The notes: generated by a model from the letters alone, not told the origin. Counted from the stretch's first letter, positions 17,496-48,121 are shown. The stretch is 64,000 nt of DNA from Escherichia coli (GCF_003334255.1 NZ_QOWU01000019.1), one strand, 5' to 3'. Numbers and translations: made by a program.

Positions 17496-18278
17496 TTATT
17501 GATTATGGAAGCTCACGCTACTTTTTTCGGCAAAGGCGCGCGTCGCCTGCTGGCAATCCTGAGTGGCAGACATTAATCCGGCCAGTAGCTGGTGCGGGTA
17601 ATCGGCATGTTTATTTTCCAGTGCCAGAATCAGTTGCTTAATATGCGCCAGTGCCACCGGGCCGCATTTTTCCAGCTGCGCTAACTGGTTCGCCATCCAG
17701 CTTTCCACCTGTTCTTTTTCTACCACTTCATCAATTAAATTCGCCGCCTGGGCTTCCTGCGCCGTCAGGCGTTTACCCAGCATCAGCATCTGGCGACCGA
17801 CCACCGGACCAACCTGATTAAGCACACGTTCAATGCCCATCCAGCCAGGCACCATGCCGAGCATCACTTCCGGGTTAGAGAATTTCGCGCCGGGGCGGGC
17901 AATACGAATATCGCAGCACAAGGCCAGTTCAATACCACCGCCGATGGTATGACCGTTGAGATTCGCAACGGTTAATTGGGGTAAGTTTCGCAGGCGATTA
18001 AAAACGTCATTACCGCGTTTAATCCATTTTCTGCCCATATCTAATGGCGAATAGGCCGACCACGATTTAATATCGCCGCCCGCACAAAAGAATTTATCGC
18101 CGGTTGCCGTTAATTCGACTAATCGTAATGTGGTGTCGTTTTCAATTTCATTTAAATAATGGTCGAGAGATTCGATCATCTCTTCGTTAATAGCATGACA
18201 TTTATCTTCACGGTTCAATGTCAGGCGGCAGGAAGCCGCCGCTCTGCTGAACAGAACGGGTTGGTCACTCATGATCAT
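17496..18278 (-). CDS. Enoyl-CoA hydratase/isomerase (crotonase family)
   Basis: 260 aa; crotonase-fold motifs (FCAGGDIK). Confidence 0.75.
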   Translation of the reverse strand: MIMSDQPVLFSRAAASCRLTLNREDKCHAINEEMIESLDHYLNEIENDTTLRLVELTATGDKFFCAGGDIKSWSAYSPLDMGRKWIKRGNDVFNRLRNLPQLTVANLNGHTIGGGIELALCCDIRIARPGAKFSNPEVMLGMVPGWMGIERVLNQVGPVVGRQMLMLGKRLTAQEAQAANLIDEVVEKEQVESWMANQLAQLEKCGPVALAHIKQLILALENKHADYPHQLLAGLMSATQDCQQATRAFAEKSSVSFHNQ

Positions 18279-33788: not shown

Positions 33789-39340
<5,552 letters not shown>

Positions 39341-39342
39341 CA

Positions 39343-39684
39343 ATGCGAATATTTGTCTACGGCAGTTTACGCCACAAACAAGGCAACAGTCACTGGATGA
39401 CCAATGCCCAGTTACTGGGCGATTTCAGTATCGATAACTACCAGTTGTATAGCCTGGGCCACTATCCAGGCGCAGTTCCGGGGAACGGAACAGTACACGG
39501 TGAAGTTTATCGTATTGACAACGCCACGCTGGCCGAACTTGATGCCTTGCGCACCAGGGGCGGTGAATACGCGCGCCAGTTGATTCAGACGCCGTACGGG
39601 AGTGCATGGATGTACGTTTATCAACGACCCGTCGATGGATTAAAGCTAATTGAAAGCGGCGACTGGTTAGACAGGGATAAGTAA
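39343..39684 (+). CDS. ytfP: Gamma-glutamylcyclotransferase-family protein YtfP
   Basis: 113 aa; MRIFVYGSLRHKQGNSHWM. Confidence 0.8.
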   Translation: MRIFVYGSLRHKQGNSHWMTNAQLLGDFSIDNYQLYSLGHYPGAVPGNGTVHGEVYRIDNATLAELDALRTRGGEYARQLIQTPYGSAWMYVYQRPVDGLKLIESGDWLDRDK

Positions 39685-39841
39685 TAATAAAAGCACGCCA
39701 CCTTCGGGTGGCGCGAAAACTGATGTAATGCAATGAAAAATAAAGGATTATTTTTCGAGTTGTCCACATATTGCCATGGCGTTCTAAATTTTTTTGGTGA
39801 GACTATCTCTGCTTGTTGTTTTCACCGCCAGGTTGTTAAAC

Positions 39842-39881
39842 AAAAAAAGCCCACAGTTTTTACGCTGCGGGCTTTGTTTTT
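39842..39881. terminator. Bidirectional rho-independent terminator (ytfP on plus; Hok-like transcript on minus)
   Basis: aaaaaaa-gcccacag-tttttacg-ctgcgggc-tttgttttt: hairpin flanked by A-run and T-run. Confidence 0.65.
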
Positions 39882-39966
39882 CTTTGTGACTTGCGTGTGA
39901 GGGTGCGACTTTCGACCGAACCTTCGGCAACCGGATAGCGGGGGCTTTCACCCCCGCTGCGGTTTC

Positions 39967-40107
39967 TTACTGTTTACACTGCAAGAACGCCGCAAATTCT
40001 GACCACATGATGTTAAGTCTGAACTCACACGGCGAACGGTGTATCATCCAGATGGTCAACAACATGGTTAAGCATAAAATGCTCACGATGATCGTTTTTT
40101 GCGGCAT
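39967..40107 (-). CDS. Candidate Hok/Gef-family type I toxin (46 aa, single TM helix)
   Basis: AAGGAG Shine-Dalgarno 9 nt upstream of ATG; MPQKTIIVSILCLTMLLTIWMIHRSPCEFRLNIMWSEFAAFLQCKQ; resembles recalled Hok motifs (CLT..LL, R-S-x-C-E-F-R, E-F-A-A-F); below the track's 60 aa cutoff. Confidence 0.45.
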   Translation of the reverse strand: MPQKTIIVSILCLTMLLTIWMIHRSPCEFRLNIMWSEFAAFLQCKQ

Positions 40108-40169
40108 AGCGCTTGACTCCTTTTACAGGGAGGCGCTAACCTTCCACTTGTCTAGGGTAGGAATGGTTA

Positions 40170-40210
40170 GGGCCTCGGGTTAAACAATATGTTTGACTCG
40201 GGGCCTTTTC
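40170..40210 (+). ncRNA. Candidate antisense (Sok-like) RNA 3' end: plus-strand intrinsic terminator within the 5' leader of the Hok-like gene
   Basis: Imperfect hairpin gggcctcggg...ctcggggcc followed by tttt on the plus strand only; no plus-strand CDS ends here. Confidence 0.3.
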
Positions 40211-40241
40211 ACATCCGGCCTTCAGGTAATCCTTCCAGCCG

Positions 40242-40544
40242 TCAGCCGAAAGGCACCCGCGCGTAATGTACAGTTTTTGACTGGGAGGCGCAATCGCCCA
40301 GGGGTAGGCTGAGTTGATCCCTTCCCCGGTGGCATGATTTGAAAGCGTCTGCGGGGACGACTCCCCGTTCTTCGGTGGGTTGCGGACGGCATACGGTTCT
40401 CACGACAAACTCGTGCGTCACAAAGGTGGCGCTGCATTCAATGTTGTTGCACTGGTAATATTTCTCCCTGATTGTTCCTGTATCGTTGGCGTCGCGGCTT
40501 GTTCTGGTGCGGGTACTTGCTCCGCAGTATGGGCAAGGATGCAT
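40242..40544 (-). CDS. ogr: Late-gene transcriptional activator, Ogr/Delta zinc-finger family
   Basis: MHPCPYCGASTRTRTSR...YYQCNNIECSATF: Cys4 zinc-finger pattern of P2 Ogr. Confidence 0.75.
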   Translation of the reverse strand: MHPCPYCGASTRTRTSRDANDTGTIREKYYQCNNIECSATFVTHEFVVRTVCRPQPTEERGVVPADAFKSCHRGRDQLSLPLGDCASQSKTVHYARVPFG

Positions 40545-40585
40545 GATGGTCCCCCAGGCTGAAACGGGGTGGGCTCGCGCTCATT

Positions 40586-41731
40586 CTAGCCAGTTGTGGC
40601 GCGCTCTGCTATCCAGTCTGCGATTTTTGCTTCCAGCTCCAGTCTGGTGGTGAAGCCGCTGTCGTCGATGACGTGCTCAATGCGCGAAATAATCCAGTCC
40701 TGATTGTCAATGTCGCTCTTGAACCCGGATACCGTGCCGTGCATCTCTGGATACAGGTCGGCGCGTCCGCGCGCCAGCGTGATGCTGAATTCTGCTGCAC
40801 CCCGCTGAAGTTGCTGCCAGCGTGCGGCAGCTGCGCGACGCGCGGCTTCTTCGTTCGGGTAGGTTTTTCTCAGCACATACACATTGCCTTCTGCGCCTTC
40901 CATGTATCCACCCTCCCGTGAACTGCTTTTCTCCGGCTTCTGTGTGGTTTTCGCGTTTCGCTTTTTCACGTTCACGGCCTTCTTCTGGCCGAACTTTAAA
41001 TCCAGCCAGTAAGCTTTCACTCCGGTATAGGCTTTTCTGTCAGCAATGCGAAAGCGATGACTGTCGCCATCCGAGCGGGTCAGGGCGAATGAGGGGAGGG
41101 CGCGCCCGCTGGCTGTCACACCGCCACCCGGCAGAATGAACAGCAGGCACCCGTTTTTTACGGTGGTTATTGCACCCAGCATGTCAGCCATACGCGTGAG
41201 GAACGAGATGTCGCTTTCCTCTGTCTGGTCTGCATGGTCGATTTCGATATTCATCAGCATTTCGCTGATTTGTGCTTTCAGTCCGTAACGGTGCGCGATG
41301 GCAGATACCACACGCTCAACGGTCACGTCATGCCAGGAGACTTCGCGTTTCACGTTAAACTCTTCGCGAAAATCCGCACTGTTCGCGGATATGGTCAGCT
41401 TATCCGGCGGACCTTCGTGGCTCACTTCGTCCACCACAAACGCCCCCTTGCGAGTGAGGCTTTCACCTTTCCATCCCATCGCCAGCGATAATCGTGTTCC
41501 GCGCTCCGGAAGTACCACCCCGCCGTCGGCGTCGTCGATTTCCAGTGTCACCCTGTCAGCCTCAAAACCCCTGTTGTCTGTCATGGTCAGGCTCATGATG
41601 CGCTGCGTGATGTTCTTCAGGCTGGCATCTTTCCCTTCCAGTGTGATAGTGAAGTCTGGCACCCTAACGGTATCTTCCGCTGCATCCAGTGCGCTGTTGA
41701 TGTGATGTGTTACTGATTCAGTGATGCTCAT
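40586..41731 (-). CDS. D: Tail protein gpD
   Basis: 381 aa; P2 gpD-like length and position next to ogr. Confidence 0.8.
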   Translation of the reverse strand: MSITESVTHHINSALDAAEDTVRVPDFTITLEGKDASLKNITQRIMSLTMTDNRGFEADRVTLEIDDADGGVVLPERGTRLSLAMGWKGESLTRKGAFVVDEVSHEGPPDKLTISANSADFREEFNVKREVSWHDVTVERVVSAIAHRYGLKAQISEMLMNIEIDHADQTEESDISFLTRMADMLGAITTVKNGCLLFILPGGGVTASGRALPSFALTRSDGDSHRFRIADRKAYTGVKAYWLDLKFGQKKAVNVKKRNAKTTQKPEKSSSREGGYMEGAEGNVYVLRKTYPNEEAARRAAAARWQQLQRGAAEFSITLARGRADLYPEMHGTVSGFKSDIDNQDWIISRIEHVIDDSGFTTRLELEAKIADWIAERATTG

Positions 41732-41791
41732 GATATCCCTCCCGTGTGCGTATCATCCCACGCGTACCTTGTCGTTTCTGTCCGGCTCTGT

Positions 41792-41809
41792 TGTAAAAAA
41801 ATCCCCACA
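41792..41809. promoter_or_regulatory. Ogr-box-like dyad TGT-N12-ACA between divergent D and FI genes (candidate late promoter element)
   Basis: tgt-aaaaaaatcccc-aca; centre about 55 nt from plausible start sites on both strands. Confidence 0.45.
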
Positions 41810-41884
41810 GCCCGCATCAGGTGAGGGCTGTGCGCCAATGGTGGATTATTCAGGCGAGCATAAACACAACTGATGGTGAATCGT

Positions 41885-43078
41885 ATGGCTGAAAAACGAT
41901 TTCACGGTGTGCGCGTCACGGAGAATACCGACCTTGTGACGGCCATTAATGACGTTGATTCCAGCGTCATTGGTATTGTTGCCGTTGCAGATGATGCGGA
42001 TACCGGGCAGTTCCCCCTTAACAAGCCAGTGCTGATTACCCGTGTATCTTCTGTTCTGGGGAAGGCCGGGAAAGCGGGCACGCTTTATAAGGCCCTTAAA
42101 GCGATATCTGACCAGGTCAGTACACGGGTGATTGTCGTTCGCGTGGAGGCGGCAAAAGAGGGGGCTGAGAATAAAACACAGGATCAACTGGTCATTGGTA
42201 CCACGGAAGAAGACGGAAGCTACAGCGGTATGCAGGCGCTTCTGGTTGCCGAACAGATGGAAGGTATTGGTTACCGACCCCGCATTCTTGCCGCTCCGGG
42301 CCTTGAATCGGATGCTGTCACGGCTGCACTGGTGACTGTTGCCGGAAAAATGCGCGCATTTGCGTATTCCGGCTGCCCTGGCTGCACAAAACCGTCCGAT
42401 GCTATTGCGTTTCGTAAAAAGATTTCCGGTCGCGAAATCATGCTTCTGTGGCCTGATTTCATTGCGTTCAACCCGGTGTCCGGTAAAAACGAAACCTTCC
42501 CGGCTGCGGCGTATGCGTGCGGTCTTCGTGCCCGACTCGACCATGAACAGGGCTGGCATCGCTCCCTTTCTAACATGCCTGTGAAAAATGTTCTTGGGGT
42601 GCCAGCGTCTGTTTCCTGGTCACTTCAGGATGAAAACAGCGATGCCAACACGCTGAACAACAGCGAGGTGACCACTCTTATTCACCAGGGCGACGGCTCC
42701 TTCCGTTTCTGGGGTAACCGTACGCCGGAAACTGCGGAGTACATCTTTGAGGTGTACACACGTACGGCGCAGCAACTGGCTGACACCATTGCGGAGGCGC
42801 AACTTCAGATAGTGGATTCACCGCTTACGCCTGCCAATGCTAAGGATGCCGTGAGCGCTATCAAGGCAAAGCTGGATGCACTGGTGACAGCCGGAAAACT
42901 CATCGGGGCTGAGTGCTGGTTCGATATCATCGACAACGGCACAACCAGTCTTCGTCAGGGCATTGTGCGTATTCGCTACAAATACACGCCTGTTCCGCCG
43001 ATGGAGTGTATGGAACTCTATCAGACGTTTACCGACGAGTTCTTCAGCTCTGCTTTTGCATCTCTTGGAGGTAGCTAA
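41885..43078 (+). CDS. FI: Tail sheath protein gpFI
   Basis: Recalled P2 FI similarity (NKPVLIT, LWPDF, GWHRSLSN, FRFWGNRT). Confidence 0.9.
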   Translation: MAEKRFHGVRVTENTDLVTAINDVDSSVIGIVAVADDADTGQFPLNKPVLITRVSSVLGKAGKAGTLYKALKAISDQVSTRVIVVRVEAAKEGAENKTQDQLVIGTTEEDGSYSGMQALLVAEQMEGIGYRPRILAAPGLESDAVTAALVTVAGKMRAFAYSGCPGCTKPSDAIAFRKKISGREIMLLWPDFIAFNPVSGKNETFPAAAYACGLRARLDHEQGWHRSLSNMPVKNVLGVPASVSWSLQDENSDANTLNNSEVTTLIHQGDGSFRFWGNRTPETAEYIFEVYTRTAQQLADTIAEAQLQIVDSPLTPANAKDAVSAIKAKLDALVTAGKLIGAECWFDIIDNGTTSLRQGIVRIRYKYTPVPPMECMELYQTFTDEFFSSAFASLGGS

Positions 43079-43590
43079 TGGCCGTACCAAAAAAACTTCG
43101 TGTGTTTACCGTCTTTGTGGACGGTGACAACAAGCTGGGAAAGGTGACGTCTTTTACCCCGCCAAAACTGACCCGTAAAACAGAGTCGTATCGCGGGGCG
43201 GGGATGCCAGGCTCTGCGTCGGTGGATCTCGGTCTTGATGATGGTGCACTGGATCTCTCCTTTGCGGTTGGTGGCGTCGATCGTCACATCTTTGCCAAAT
43301 ACGCCGCCGGTATTGATGCCGTGCGTGTTCGCTTCTCGGGTGAATACTATTCCGAAGAAGGGATTGAGTACGTCGATATTGAAGCCCGTGGTCGCATTGT
43401 CGAAATCGACAAGGGCGAGGCCAAACAGGGTGAAGATACCGAACATACCTATGCGATGAAATGCACCTGGTACAAGCTCAGCGTTGATAACAGCGATGTT
43501 ATTGAAATCGACGTGCTGAACTTCATCTGGCGCATTGATGGTAAGGATGTTCTTCCTGACCGCACCCGCTCCATGCTGGGGCTTGGCTGA
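43078..43590 (+). CDS. FII: Tail tube protein gpFII
   Basis: 170 aa; MAVPKKLRVFTVFVDGDNKLGKVTSFTPPKL; ATGA overlap with FI. Confidence 0.9.
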   Translation: MAVPKKLRVFTVFVDGDNKLGKVTSFTPPKLTRKTESYRGAGMPGSASVDLGLDDGALDLSFAVGGVDRHIFAKYAAGIDAVRVRFSGEYYSEEGIEYVDIEARGRIVEIDKGEAKQGEDTEHTYAMKCTWYKLSVDNSDVIEIDVLNFIWRIDGKDVLPDRTRSMLGLG

Positions 43591-43641
43591 TAGTTAAATC
43601 TGATAACAGGGGCGGCGTCCTGTTGCCCCGGGAGAAAAATA

Positions 43642-44022
43642 ATGGATCAGACTGAAGAAAATATCGTGACGAATGACACAGATGCTGTGACGAATGGCGA
43701 CACGGAAAACGCAGAGGCGATCGCAAATGACACGGTTAATCTCAGGGTTCCTGTTGTCTGCGGTAATAAGACGGTTTCCAGCGTGAAGATTGGGGCGCTT
43801 GCGCGTCAGGTGGGCTCGCTTCGAGGGATCCGCATGACGGACCTGTTCAACACCGATGTTGATGCTGCCGCCATTTTTCTGGAACGCGTAACTGAACCTC
43901 ACCTCAGCCGCGCGGCACTTATGTCAATGTGCCCGGAAGACTTCTTTAAACTGTACGAGGTGGCAGTCGGTTTTTTGCTTCCCTCGTCAGCGAAGAAGGC
44001 GCAGGAGGCGGGCGGCGCGTAA
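43642..44022 (+). CDS. E: Tail assembly chaperone gpE (E' extension by -1 frameshift to about 44177)
   Basis: 126 aa; P2 gpE-like C-terminal half; slippery site near the 3' end. Confidence 0.8.
   Translation: MDQTEENIVTNDTDAVTNGDTENAEAIANDTVNLRVPVVCGNKTVSSVKIGALARQVGSLRGIRMTDLFNTDVDAAAIFLERVTEPHLSRAALMSMCPEDFFKLYEVAVGFLLPSSAKKAQEAGGA
43971..43977 (+). other. Programmed -1 ribosomal frameshift slippery heptamer T_TTT_TTG (gpE to gpE+E')
   Basis: In E frame GGT TTT TTG; the -1 frame stays open for about 65 codons to a TAA at 44175-44177 overlapping the T start. Confidence 0.65.
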
Positions 44023-44169
44023 CGCTTCTTGCTTTTGATTACGTTGAAGATATTGTCGCTGATATAGCCGTTGTATTTCACTGGTCGCCCTCTGAAATCT
44101 TTGTGATGACTCCCGGTGAACTGGTTGCCTGGCGAGAACGGGCGGCCGTCAGAACCGGGAATCATAACG

Positions 44170-47001
44170 ATGAGTAATAATCTCCAGATACGTGTAGCCC
44201 TTACTGCGGTCGACCGTCTCACTCAACCCGTCAGGCGCGCCCGGGAAATGACCGGCGCGCTTTCTGAATCTCTTTCCTCCACGCAGAACGCTCTTAAGTC
44301 ACTCCAGCGAAGCAGTGATGCGTTTTCCCGTGCCCGCCAGCAGGTGACCTCGACTGAAAACAGCCTGAACGAGGCGCGTGCGCGACTTCAGCGCCTCCAG
44401 GAGGCCCAGCGTACTGGCACGACACTAACGGAAAAACAGCAGGAAGCTATCCGCTCGCTGACTGCGAAGATTGATCGCCTTAATACGGTTTATTCCCTCC
44501 ACAAATCCCGACTTAGCGAAGCCGGTCGCGAACTGGAAGCCCACGGCATACGGGCTGACGGAAGTAACCGCGCTGTGGAGGAAGCAATCAGGCGAACGCA
44601 GGAATACAACGATCAGCTTGAGCGCCAGCAGGCTCAGCTTGCACGCGTCACGCAGGCGCAGCAACGCTATGACCGTGTTAAGGATATTGCCGGTAAGCTC
44701 AGTCAGCGCGGTGCTGTTGCCATGGCGGCTGGCAGTGCCGGTCTGTATGCTGCCGGTCGCGCGGTTGCACCAGTTGTTGAAGAGCAACGGCAGGGGGCGC
44801 TCATTGCGGCACAGAGTGGCGGCAGCGCAGAAGACGGCCAGCGCTACAGCCGTATGATTCAGAGCATCCGTGCGTCAGGTGCGGCCACGGATATCGCGAT
44901 GATTTCGGAAGCAGCAGCTGCGGCGCAAAGCACGCTTGGCGCACTGGGTACCGTAGGGACTGAAGAACTGGAAAGGGTGACACGGCAGGCAATCGATCTT
45001 GCTCAGGTCACCGGCGGTAATGTGGCTGAACAGGTTCAGGCTGCTGGCATTATGCTGAAAAACGGGCTTGCCGCAAATGCAGGTGAGGCCGTCGACCTGA
45101 TGGCGGCAGGGATGCAGAAAATGTCTGCCGAAATGCGCGGCGAACTTCCTGAAATTCTGCATGAGTATTCCACGCATTTCCGCAATATGGGGCTATCCGG
45201 CTCTGAAACCATGACGCTGCTTGTCAGCATGGCGCAGCAGGGGAAATTCGCCCTGGATAAAACCGGCGATGCTGTCAAAGAATTCAGTATTCGCGGCTCG
45301 GATATGTCCAAATCCAGCGTTGAAGCCTATGAGCTGATTGGCCTTAACGCTGAAAGAATGTCGTCAGCGATCGCCAGTGGCGGCGCGGCCGCGCGTGAAG
45401 CGATGCGTCGCACCGCGTCAGGTCTGTTACAGATTCAGGATCCTGCAGAAAGGGCCAATGCGGCGATAGCGCTGTTCGGCACACCCATTGAAGATCTGGC
45501 TGTTGACCAGATCCCGGATTTTCTCCGGTCGCTTGCAACGGTATCTGACCGTATGGGGCTGGTTCAGGGAACCGCCCGGCGAATGGGGGATGTTCTGCGT
45601 GACAACCTCGGCGGCGACACCGATCGTCTGTCCGGCATTTTCTCCGGTATTCGCAGTGATGTTGTGTCGCTGGTTACTGATGATATCCGCGAGCTTGTAC
45701 AGGCTGTTGCTTCTGTGGGTGAACGCTTCAGGTCGTGGGTTCAGGAAAACCCGCAGCTTGTACGCACGCTGACTCTTACCGTGGGTGGCGTGCTTGCGGC
45801 CACAACGGCCATTGGTGCGTTGTCTGTCGGAGGTGGGTTACTGACGGGGATTTTTGCAAAACTTCAGCTTGGCTCTGCGCTTCTTGGTGGCGGGCTATCC
45901 TCGCTTACAAACGGTGTTGGTGGTCTTGCTCTTCGCCTGTCCGGCCTTCCGGCACTGTGGGGGATGGTCTCCGGTGCGGTTTCTGTGCTGGGCGGGGTGC
46001 TTTCCGGTCTTCTCAGTCCTGTTGGTCTCGTGATTGCTGCTCTTGCCGGTGGGGCGCTGCTCATATGGCGTCACTGGGAACAGGTTAAGGCGTTCATGCT
46101 CGGCACATTCCGGTCGCTGTGGGCTGGCCTTGCGCCTGTTCGTGAAAGTATTGCTCAGTTTGCGCCGTTGTTTGATCTGGTGTCGGGTGCGGTGTCCACG
46201 GTGTTTGACTGGTTTACCCGGTTACTCACGCCTGTTCAGGCCAGCAACGAATCTCTTGAACGGTGTACGTCTGCGGGAGAAAGCTTCGGTCGTGTACTTA
46301 GTGGGGCGATATCGCTTGCGCTTACGCCGCTGAAGGCGCTGATGGATGGACTTGCCTGGGTACTGGAAAAGCTTGGCGTGCTGCCTGATGAAGCTGAAAG
46401 GGCGCGCCGGAAACTGGAGGATGCACAGCGGGCTTCGCTTCTTCAGGGCAAGCTCTCCCTGCTTCAGGGGGATGTTAATGCCATTATCTCGCCCGCTAAG
46501 CCAGTTGATGGCAATGATAAAGGTAATAATGGTGGCAAGCCTTCTGTCATAAACGACGGCACCAGTGGCGTTCTTCGCAGGCTCAAAGGTATCGAGGGTA
46601 ATACGTCGGGTATGCTTCAGGAAGCCCGCAAGCGTATCGGTCCTGGCGATATCGTGTTTAAAAATCTCCCCCGTGCGCTGGCTGTTCGCGGGCAGTGGAA
46701 TGAACCGACTGTTGCACCCGGGCTTCCGCTTATGCCAGCGTTTTCGCCTGTGTCTCCGGCGGTTTCCCCGGATTCTTCCCGTCCTGTGGAGGTTAAGCGG
46801 TGGGATCCGGTGTCCCCGACACCCCGGGAGCCTTCGCGCTCTCCTGAACCGCCGCCTGTGTACGGTGGTGATATTCATGTTCACCTTCACAACGTGGTTA
46901 CGCAGAACCCTCGCGACCTTGCCAGAATGGTGGGGGAGGCGGTACGGGAAGAAATTCGCAGACAATCCGGCGGTATGAACAGTTTCCGCGATCGTGATTA
47001 G
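44170..47001 (+). CDS. T: Tail tape measure protein gpT
   Basis: Start MSNNLQIRVALT; coiled-coil N-terminal region, Gly/Ala-rich hydrophobic middle, Pro-rich C-terminus. Confidence 0.85.
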   Translation: MSNNLQIRVALTAVDRLTQPVRRAREMTGALSESLSSTQNALKSLQRSSDAFSRARQQVTSTENSLNEARARLQRLQEAQRTGTTLTEKQQEAIRSLTAKIDRLNTVYSLHKSRLSEAGRELEAHGIRADGSNRAVEEAIRRTQEYNDQLERQQAQLARVTQAQQRYDRVKDIAGKLSQRGAVAMAAGSAGLYAAGRAVAPVVEEQRQGALIAAQSGGSAEDGQRYSRMIQSIRASGAATDIAMISEAAAAAQSTLGALGTVGTEELERVTRQAIDLAQVTGGNVAEQVQAAGIMLKNGLAANAGEAVDLMAAGMQKMSAEMRGELPEILHEYSTHFRNMGLSGSETMTLLVSMAQQGKFALDKTGDAVKEFSIRGSDMSKSSVEAYELIGLNAERMSSAIASGGAAAREAMRRTASGLLQIQDPAERANAAIALFGTPIEDLAVDQIPDFLRSLATVSDRMGLVQGTARRMGDVLRDNLGGDTDRLSGIFSGIRSDVVSLVTDDIRELVQAVASVGERFRSWVQENPQLVRTLTLTVGGVLAATTAIGALSVGGGLLTGIFAKLQLGSALLGGGLSSLTNGVGGLALRLSGLPALWGMVSGAVSVLGGVLSGLLSPVGLVIAALAGGALLIWRHWEQVKAFMLGTFRSLWAGLAPVRESIAQFAPLFDLVSGAVSTVFDWFTRLLTPVQASNESLERCTSAGESFGRVLSGAISLALTPLKALMDGLAWVLEKLGVLPDEAERARRKLEDAQRASLLQGKLSLLQGDVNAIISPAKPVDGNDKGNNGGKPSVINDGTSGVLRRLKGIEGNTSGMLQEARKRIGPGDIVFKNLPRALAVRGQWNEPTVAPGLPLMPAFSPVSPAVSPDSSRPVEVKRWDPVSPTPREPSRSPEPPPVYGGDIHVHLHNVVTQNPRDLARMVGEAVREEIRRQSGGMNSFRDRD

Positions 47002-47003
47002 GA

Positions 47004-47477
47004 GTGATGGTTATGATGATGATTTACGGCATGTTTGTTTTTCAGTTAAGCACACTGCCACACCAACAAATACAACAGTCCCGTAACTGGAGGCATGTAA
47101 AGAACGAGCGAATCAACCGCTCAGCCAGCTGGCAGTATATCGGCGCGGGTGACGATACCATCACGCTTTCGGGTTTGCTCTACCCGGAAATTACGGGCGG
47201 TGAAGTCTCCCTGACCGCACTGACCAGCCAGGCTTACGTCGGGCGACCATGGCCGCTGATTGATGGGGTAGGGCAGATTTACGGGATGTATGTCATTACC
47301 GGGCTTAACACCACCCGCTCTGAACTTGATCGCTATGGTCGGGCAAGAAAGATTGAGTTTACTGTCACTTTTGAGCGTGTGGATGAAGATCTGCGTGAAC
47401 GTCTTCAGTCCTCGTCGCTTGGTGATCTTGCGAATAACGTTAAAGGTGCCCTGAATAATCTGTCCATTCCGGTTTAA
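47004..47477 (+). CDS. U: Tail protein gpU
   Basis: 157 aa; follows T as in the P2 FETUD operon. Confidence 0.8.
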   Translation: MMVMMMIYGMFVFQLSTLPHQQIQQSRNWRHVKNERINRSASWQYIGAGDDTITLSGLLYPEITGGEVSLTALTSQAYVGRPWPLIDGVGQIYGMYVITGLNTTRSELDRYGRARKIEFTVTFERVDEDLRERLQSSSLGDLANNVKGALNNLSIPV

Positions 47478-47512: not shown

Positions 47513-48121
47513 TCATCTTTCGGTGGCGGGTTCTTCCTGTGTGGGCCAGCCCACAACGTAACGCTGAATGGCCTCCGCATCCTGAAGTTCTGCAATCTCT
47601 TTTTTCATGTTGCGCTGGCGCACATGAATTTCCATTCCCTTCGCGAACATTGCCTGTTGCGCGGCTTCACTCAGCGCAATCAGTTCTTCCGCAGTCATGG
47701 GGACGTCGTTGTTGTCTGCGTCTGTCCAGAAAAACTTCTCCGGGAGATTGCCTTCTTTTGCTGCGATAACTGATGGGCCAAGGCGATCCTGTGTTTCCTT
47801 TCCATAATCCCAGTTACGGCCATTAAAGCTGAAAATATAACTGGCTGATTCCATTCTGTTCCGCCAGGCGTTGATCCCGGCGGTTTTGAGTTCTCTGGCT
47901 TTTTCCGGGCTGATGGATGGCTGTACATATTCTGCAATTTCACCGGCCTCTCCTCTCAGACAAGCGGCATAAATATCCCGCCCGTATGCTTCGGTATCGC
48001 TGGCTGTTGCAGTGAAAGGAACCGCCTGCTCAATGTGCTCAAACTTCACCATGCAATTGACAGCAGTGTGCTCTTTATCTGCCCATTGCGGATTGCTTAT
48101 TTTTTCCACATTCATGTTCAT
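47513..48121 (-). CDS. G: Tail fiber assembly protein gpG-like
   Basis: Likely start MNVEKISNPQW just after the H stop; position equivalent to P2 G; sequence match weaker than for other genes. Confidence 0.6.
   Translation of the reverse strand: MNMNVEKISNPQWADKEHTAVNCMVKFEHIEQAVPFTATASDTEAYGRDIYAACLRGEAGEIAEYVQPSISPEKARELKTAGINAWRNRMESASYIFSFNGRNWDYGKETQDRLGPSVIAAKEGNLPEKFFWTDADNNDVPMTAEELIALSEAAQQAMFAKGMEIHVRQRNMKKEIAELQDAEAIQRYVVGWPTQEEPATER

Follow-up and report, generated by a model that had tools for sequence, protein, structure and literature searches.

A putative bidirectional late promoter region around a single Ogr-type site between the divergent tail genes D and FI of a P88-like Escherichia coli prophage

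A stretch of 64,000 nucleotides of Escherichia coli DNA (GCF_003334255.1, NZ_QOWU01000019.1; referred to here as the window, with positions counted from its first letter) contains, from about 39.84 to 64 kb, a P2-family prophage within the host chromosome, in which the tail genes D and FI are transcribed away from each other across a gap of 153 bp. Our results indicate that this gap is likely to constitute a bidirectional P2-type late promoter region, arranged around one site for the prophage's own late activator, Ogr. The use of one Ogr box by divergent late promoters is already established for the PP/PO pair of phage P2; what would be new here is a second pair of this kind, at D/FI, apparently created by an inversion of the FI-U block in P88-like phages. 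In the accessible literature searched, no description of a shared D/FI site was found. The inverted repeats bound by Ogr are centred near -55, and Ogr must make contact with the alpha subunit of RNA polymerase (PMC3152322).

The D/FI box and the predicted promoters

Gene D (40586-41731, minus strand), a tail protein gene annotated as 'late control D', was identified by 72% tblastn identity to the D genes of P88 and phiT5282H and by the RefSeq annotation of a near-identical locus; its start codon has its first base at 41731. The tail sheath gene FI (41885-43078, plus strand) displays 73% tblastn identity to P88-like sheath proteins, with alignments beginning at the methionine encoded at 41885. 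This ATG was taken as the FI start because all relatives align from it and the in-frame upstream ATG at 41873 is not conserved. Within the gap so delimited, the dyad TGTAAAAAAATCCCCACA occupies positions 41792-41809, its core reading TGT-AAAAAAATCCCC-ACA (TGT-N12-ACA, centre 41800.5) inside the longer Ogr-type activator box TGTTGT-AAAAAAATCCCC-ACAG (41789-41810), of which the 20 bp TTGT-N12-ACAG (41791-41810) served as the reference for all distances given below. The original prediction had placed this dyad about 70 nt from the D start and about 84 nt from the FI start; both position and distances hold, the box centre being separated by 69.5 nt from the ATG of D and by 84.5 nt from that of FI. 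The TTGT-N12-A[G/C]A island is single in the D/FI gap, both in the window and in all relatives, with no second box.

The bare pattern TGT-N12-ACA is not enriched in the window (9 matches, with 14.3 expected from shuffles), and its probability of occurring by chance is about 3.0% for the D/FI gap and 3.1% for the gap between the divergent genes O and P, in agreement with the few percent originally estimated for a gap of 140-160 bp. The extended form TGTTGT-N12-A[G/C]A was found four times, with 1.01 matches expected, always within the prophage, and two of these matches correspond exactly to the D/FI and O/P gaps, for which the chance is about 0.2% each. The remaining two, both TGTTGT-N12-AGA, are located at the start of FII (43112-43132, minus strand) and in a tail-fibre gene (47710-47730, plus strand); they were considered as additional late promoters and set aside as probable chance matches, given that neither faces a gene start. 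The FII match is furthermore confined to the window's clade (3/80 loci).

For comparison, we assembled 80 viral-contig loci encoding close D relatives, together with P88 and phiT5282H, and from 83 related loci 60 distinct D/FI gap sequences were obtained, including 13 representatives less than 85% identical. Mean non-coding identity among these representatives was 49%. The best-conserved non-coding block of the gap was the TTGT half-site, the 12-nt spacer and the A[G/C]A half-site, invariant in the 60 distinct gaps, and the top conserved columns among the representatives corresponded to GTTGT, the two A residues of the right half, the GTGA described below and both -10 elements. Across the 80 related loci, which comprise 418 kb, the extended motif occurs 75 times at this place and twice more in reversed orientation at the same place, versus 5 times elsewhere. 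Judging from this conservation, the dyad is not a chance occurrence. Its right half reads AGA in most relatives and ACA in the window's clade and two others; therefore, the perfect dyad is specific to the clade, and the site itself is universal.

The spacer always has 12 nt, and its sequence, A tract included, is not conserved: positions 41795-41806 consist of a run of seven A residues followed by TCCCC in the window's clade, and of GC-rich sequence, e.g., CGCCGTGGCGGG, in nearly all relatives. On this alignment, the D/FI spacer is clearly not read for its sequence, and the DNA might be bent by the A tract. A position matrix built from the relatives' full 25-nt boxes was tried as a detector and discarded, as it had become tuned to the P88 clade's GC-rich spacer, ranking the O/P box second and missing the D/FI box because the spacer of the window's clade is A-rich and C-rich instead of GC-rich. 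Motif detection was consequently carried out by half-sites only. The tail-fibre match mentioned above received the top score with this matrix (19 bits).

The elements flanking the box follow a simple spacing rule, in which a hexamer lies 33 nt from the 20-bp box beginning at TTGT and transcription would start 7 nt past the hexamer. On the FI side, the putative -10 hexamer GATTAT (41844-41849, plus strand), of the form xAxxAT, is found exactly 33 nt from the box in 60/60 distinct relatives, and is separated by a 17-bp spacer from the -35-like GTGAGG (41821-41826, plus strand), whose first four bases GTGA (41821-41824) are nearly invariant in the 13 representatives and across relatives; the FI start predicted from this -10 is 41856 (+/-1 nt, plus strand), with a leader of 29 nt. 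On the opposite side, the promoter of D must be located in this same gap because D has no other upstream DNA, and the candidate is an extended -10, TG-G-GATGAT (41752-41760, minus strand), whose TG shows no variation in the 60 distinct relatives, all of which also retain A2 and T6 of the hexamer. The TG is 30-31 nt from the box, and the hexamer, of the form xAxxxT, is situated one base further out (33-34 nt from the box). The predicted D start, 7 nt past this -10, is 41745 (+/-1 nt, minus strand), leaving a 14-nt leader that contains the Shine-Dalgarno sequence GGGAGGG (41737-41743).

Taken together, the two -10-like hexamers are mirror-symmetric, each 33 nt from its end of the box, and the predicted starts are 111 bp apart, at 55.5 nt on either side of the box centre. 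The suggestion that one dyad is placed to serve both flanks from about -55 agrees with this geometry, the support being comparative in nature.

Other candidate features of the gap were examined and rejected. A 50-aa open reading frame (ORF) spanning it (41721-41873), and the 43-aa ORF annotated there in P88, do not correspond to genes, as the alignment is rich in indels and substitutions and lacks a conserved frame; a terminator-like hairpin (41744-41767) belongs to a class of sites no commoner than in shuffled sequence, and no transcript runs into it. A scan of positions 39700-42100 with Rfam revealed no RNA family in the D/FI gap.

Ogr, the O/P site and the gene layout

The prophage encodes a putative activator for this box 41 nt downstream of D, where a 100-aa ORF (40242-40544, minus strand) is homologous to the Ogr/Delta zinc-finger late activators (Pfam PF04606 Ogr_Delta, E 1.6e-15; PHROG 603, transcriptional regulator). 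The ORF displays 46% identity to P2 Ogr over 54 aa, and the corresponding gene is annotated as ogr/Delta-like by RefSeq in a near-identical E. coli locus. Its four-cysteine finger has the form CX2C-X24-CX4C, with X22 in P2. A C-terminal extension with a conserved ...SHRG(R) is common to the P88-like phages and absent from P2 Ogr. An Ogr homologue was present in 76/80 related viral-contig loci, some of the loci ending soon after D; the gene adjoins D in 56 loci and lies beyond inserted cargo DNA in 21. The reference genome of P88 (NC_026014) has no annotated gene between D, which ends at 34433, and hok (34928); positions 34476-34700 of this genome encode a clear, unannotated Ogr homologue (tblastn E 1e-15).

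A near-consensus -10-like hexamer, TAGAAT (40583-40588, minus strand), shares bases with the D stop codon and precedes ogr by about 35 nt; it is probably the promoter of ogr itself. Nearly all relatives have a TAGAAT/TAAAAT-like hexamer about 30-45 nt ahead of the ogr ATG, among them the 21 loci in which cargo DNA separates D from ogr, and the P2 record has an annotated ogr promoter in the equivalent place.

The TGT-N12-ACA originally noticed in the O/P divergent region at 60786-60803, TGTAAGAGCGTGGCGACA, is present, and the comparison establishes it as real and conserved. The activator box TGTTGT-AAGAGCGTGGCG-ACAA (60783-60804, centre 60794.5; 20-bp box 60785-60804) lies between O (59877-60713, minus strand, ATG 60713) and P (60871-62604, plus strand, followed by Q), and its distance to the O ATG is constant across 35 distinct O/P gaps. 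Putative hexamers are found 33-34 nt from the box ends: CATCAT towards O (60746-60751, minus strand) and, one base further out, TACTCT towards P (60839-60844, plus strand). The longest P ORF begins at 60826; close relatives conserve the sequence only from the ATG at 60871, which is preceded by the Shine-Dalgarno AAGGGGG and is most likely the true P start. With this start, the O/P gap measures 157 bp and the box is symmetric between O and P. Furthermore, the right half-site agrees between the D/FI and O/P boxes of one genome in four lineages, namely the window (ACA/ACA), contig 3300029738_000139 (ACA/ACA), P88 (AGAAC/AGAAC) and phiT5282H (AGACC/AGACC). Matching variants would be the expected outcome of a phage-specific activator recognising both sites, four lineages being too few for statistics.

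According to the ORF map and PHROG matches, the window's prophage carries a hok-like ORF, ogr and D on the minus strand, FI-FII-E-T-U (41885-47477) on the plus strand, G to O on the minus strand, and P-Q on the plus strand; the minus-strand genes between U and O comprise the tail-fibre, baseplate, R/S, lysis and head genes down to O. This is the gene order of P2 with the FI-U block inverted, so that D, the final gene of the F operon in P2, is here transcribed away from FI. The inverted layout is also found in P88 and phiT5282H, and D and FI are divergent in all 82 related loci that carry both genes. When the D-FI region was compared with the phage collection at the nucleotide level, no phage record matched, and protein-level searches (tblastn) were used thereafter to find phage relatives; the closest were P88, Xuanwuvirus P884B11, Citrobacter phage phiSM and Enterobacter phage phiT5282H, with 67-73% amino-acid identity. 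By these searches, the element is a P88-like (Xuanwuvirus/Novemvirus-related) Peduoviridae prophage, and it represents a distinct lineage, since it has no phage match at the nucleotide level.

The prophage adjoins the host genes tamB (35561-39340) and ytfP (39343-39684), with its left boundary at about 39838-39842. This prophage was found beside ytfP in only 2/5426 complete E. coli genomes, and the homologous ogr-D end (from about 39840 of the window on) is present at other chromosomal sites in many other E. coli genomes. At this end, a hok/sok-type toxin-antitoxin module (39967-40258, minus strand) consists of a 46-aa Hok/Gef-like ORF (39967-40107) and an Rfam sok antitoxin match (40096-40258; 44.7 bits, E 3e-8, the gathering score of 59 not being reached) that overlaps the 3' end of the ogr ORF; in P88, a hok/gef gene occupies the equivalent place. 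A 656-aa protein (53769-55739, minus strand), encoded between the lysis genes and tail gene R, contains the domains DUF1737, SASA (sialate O-acetylesterase-like) and DUF6645, matches PHROG 143, of unknown function, and looks like a carbohydrate-esterase cargo or accessory gene within the late operon.

Proposed late switch and alternative explanations

The sequence data show the box and how it is conserved, together with the ogr gene and the fixed spacings; from these we infer transcription starts, Ogr binding, activation on both sides and read-through into ogr as follows. The first step would be synthesis of Ogr from the promoter of its gene (TAGAAT, where D ends), and Ogr would then bind the dyad at 41791-41810; from about -55, it would contact the RNA polymerase alpha-subunit C-terminal domain on either flank. 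Rightward, activation of PFI (GTGAGG, GATTAT, start at about 41856) would lead to transcription of FI-FII-E-T-U; leftward, activation of PD (extended -10 TGnGATGAT, start at about 41745) would lead to transcription of D, with probable read-through into ogr, given that no terminator is seen in the 41 nt between the two genes. D would require a promoter of its own because FI-U is inverted relative to P2 and the promoter of the F operon, PF, no longer reaches it.

Several points weigh against this reading. The starts were derived from weak -10-like hexamers, with 4/6 matches each, and the predicted D leader has only about 14 nt. The perfect ACA dyad is particular to the window's clade, with AGA prevailing in relatives, and the matrix trained on the relatives' boxes leaves the D/FI box of the window outside its top ten. 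As the predicted D promoter has an extended -10, a type that can be active with no activator, dependence on Ogr is less certain on the D side than on the FI side. Finally, the accessible literature searched contains no data on transcription starts, binding or expression, either for this prophage or for any P88-like phage, and promoters are not discussed in the P88 papers.

It is unlikely, in our assessment, that the box is a genuine Ogr site activating the FI operon only, with D and ogr transcribed from a nearby activator-independent extended -10 promoter. The invariant TGn on the D side favours this explanation, since sigma-70 promoters with an extended -10 can function with neither a -35 element nor an activator. 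Further, the D side has no conserved -35-like element, while the FI side has GTGA, and expression of P2 ogr, from a promoter of its own, precedes that of the late genes according to the annotation, which makes early D-ogr transcription conceivable. Conversely, the TG-to-box distance is kept at 30-31 nt in 60 distinct sequences across bases that are largely unconserved, a constancy not easily accounted for by two independent elements; the hexamers are mirror-symmetric as at P2 PP/PO, where both are late promoters with one annotated site; D, as a structural tail protein, is required along with FI-U; and D-ogr need not be early, because ogr has its own conserved -10.

Less probable still is that the conserved island binds a protein other than Ogr, such as a host nucleoid protein, a LysR-type regulator with T-N11-A motifs or another phage regulator. 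Binding of the box by Ogr is a prediction, the bare TGT-N12-ACA is a loose pattern that lacks enrichment in the window, and the A7 tract of the window's spacer could suggest a bending or nucleoid-protein site; this tract, however, belongs to the part of the box that is not conserved. Four lineages have this bipartite motif at the O/P gap as well, in the right-half variant found at D/FI of the same genome, the box matches the published Ogr-family motifs in sequence, spacing and promoter distance, and an ogr gene accompanies it in nearly all related loci. That the dyad is a functionless chance match is scarcely credible and already effectively refuted by the conservation data: the bare pattern, at about 3% per gap and with no overall enrichment, would allow for it, as would the two further extended matches inside coding sequence, but the half-sites, the spacer length and the distances to both -10 elements are invariant at about 49% non-coding identity, and occurrences of the extended motif concentrate at this one place. 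The reading of a shared Ogr site, with divergent late promoters on its two sides, thus remains the one we prefer.

For the origin of the arrangement, we propose tentatively, and with less than even confidence, that the symmetry of the box let FI-U invert in an ancestor of the P88-like phages, that an extended -10 was gained at the mirror position to give PD, and that a PD-D-ogr positive-feedback loop resulted. If this were the case, after the inversion the same box would have faced D, and only an extended -10 would have been needed for a new late promoter; Ogr would drive its own gene directly through the PD-D-ogr loop, and the late switch would be sharper than in P2.

Significance and comparison with known systems

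These results provide a predicted promoter map for the tail genes of P88-like prophages, which are widespread in E. coli, Klebsiella, Enterobacter and Citrobacter and whose records lack annotated late promoters, P88 itself having its ogr unannotated. They suggest that the one-box/two-promoter design of P2 is reused wherever the gene order makes a divergent late pair, and offer a simple rule for finding such promoters, i.e., hexamer, 33 nt, 20-bp box, 33 nt, hexamer. The understanding of P2-type late regulation is unchanged by the D/FI finding.

The closest known system is P2 PP/PO, where the P2 record gives one 'activator binding site; pO, pP promoters' at 3057-3087, between starts at 3016 and 3127 (111 bp apart). 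When the spacing rule described above was applied to P2, it returned exactly these annotated starts, with hexamers TAGCCT and GAAACT. The D/FI gap and P2 PP/PO thus share one Ogr-type box between back-to-back late operons, the TTGT-N12 half-site layout and -10-like hexamers 33 nt off; the starts, mapped experimentally in P2, would at D/FI likewise be 111 bp apart and 55.5 nt from the centre, as predicted from the hexamers. The right half is ACA in the window, giving a perfect dyad, and CCA at P2 PP/PO; in addition, the window has an extended -10 TG on the D side and a -35-like GTGA on the FI side. The direct counterpart of P2 PP/PO in the window is the O/P gap, whereas D and FI, divergent in the window, are co-directional members of one operon in P2. 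The promoter of that operon, P2 PF (activator site 17555-17583, start 17626-17628), resembles the window's predicted PFI in serving the orthologous FI operon from a TTGT-N12-CCAA box centred at about -56.5; it differs in being one-directional and in transcribing FI through D, and also ogr late in infection, a reach that the inversion in the window has removed.

A more distant parallel is found in class I activator sites shared by divergent bacterial promoters, in which a symmetric site lies upstream of both promoters and the alpha C-terminal domain is contacted on either side. These differ in the activator family, as Ogr is a small phage zinc-finger protein and not a helix-turn-helix regulator.

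Within the Ogr family, the consensus TGT-N12-ACA has been described together with the assignment of one Smp131 dyad, read on both strands, to PP' and PO' (PMC3931495), and an extended motif, TGTTGT-X13-ACAACA, in Ralstonia P2-like phages (PMC5694545). In Smp131 PP'/PO' and in phiRSY1/phiRSA1, the same motif family as in the window was located upstream of late operons, assigned by sequence (PMC3931495, PMC5694545). The shared dyad of Smp131 lies at P/O, with no shared D/FI site described there or for the Ralstonia phages, and the motif of phiRSY1/phiRSA1 has a spacer of 13 nt, in contrast to the 12 nt of the window.

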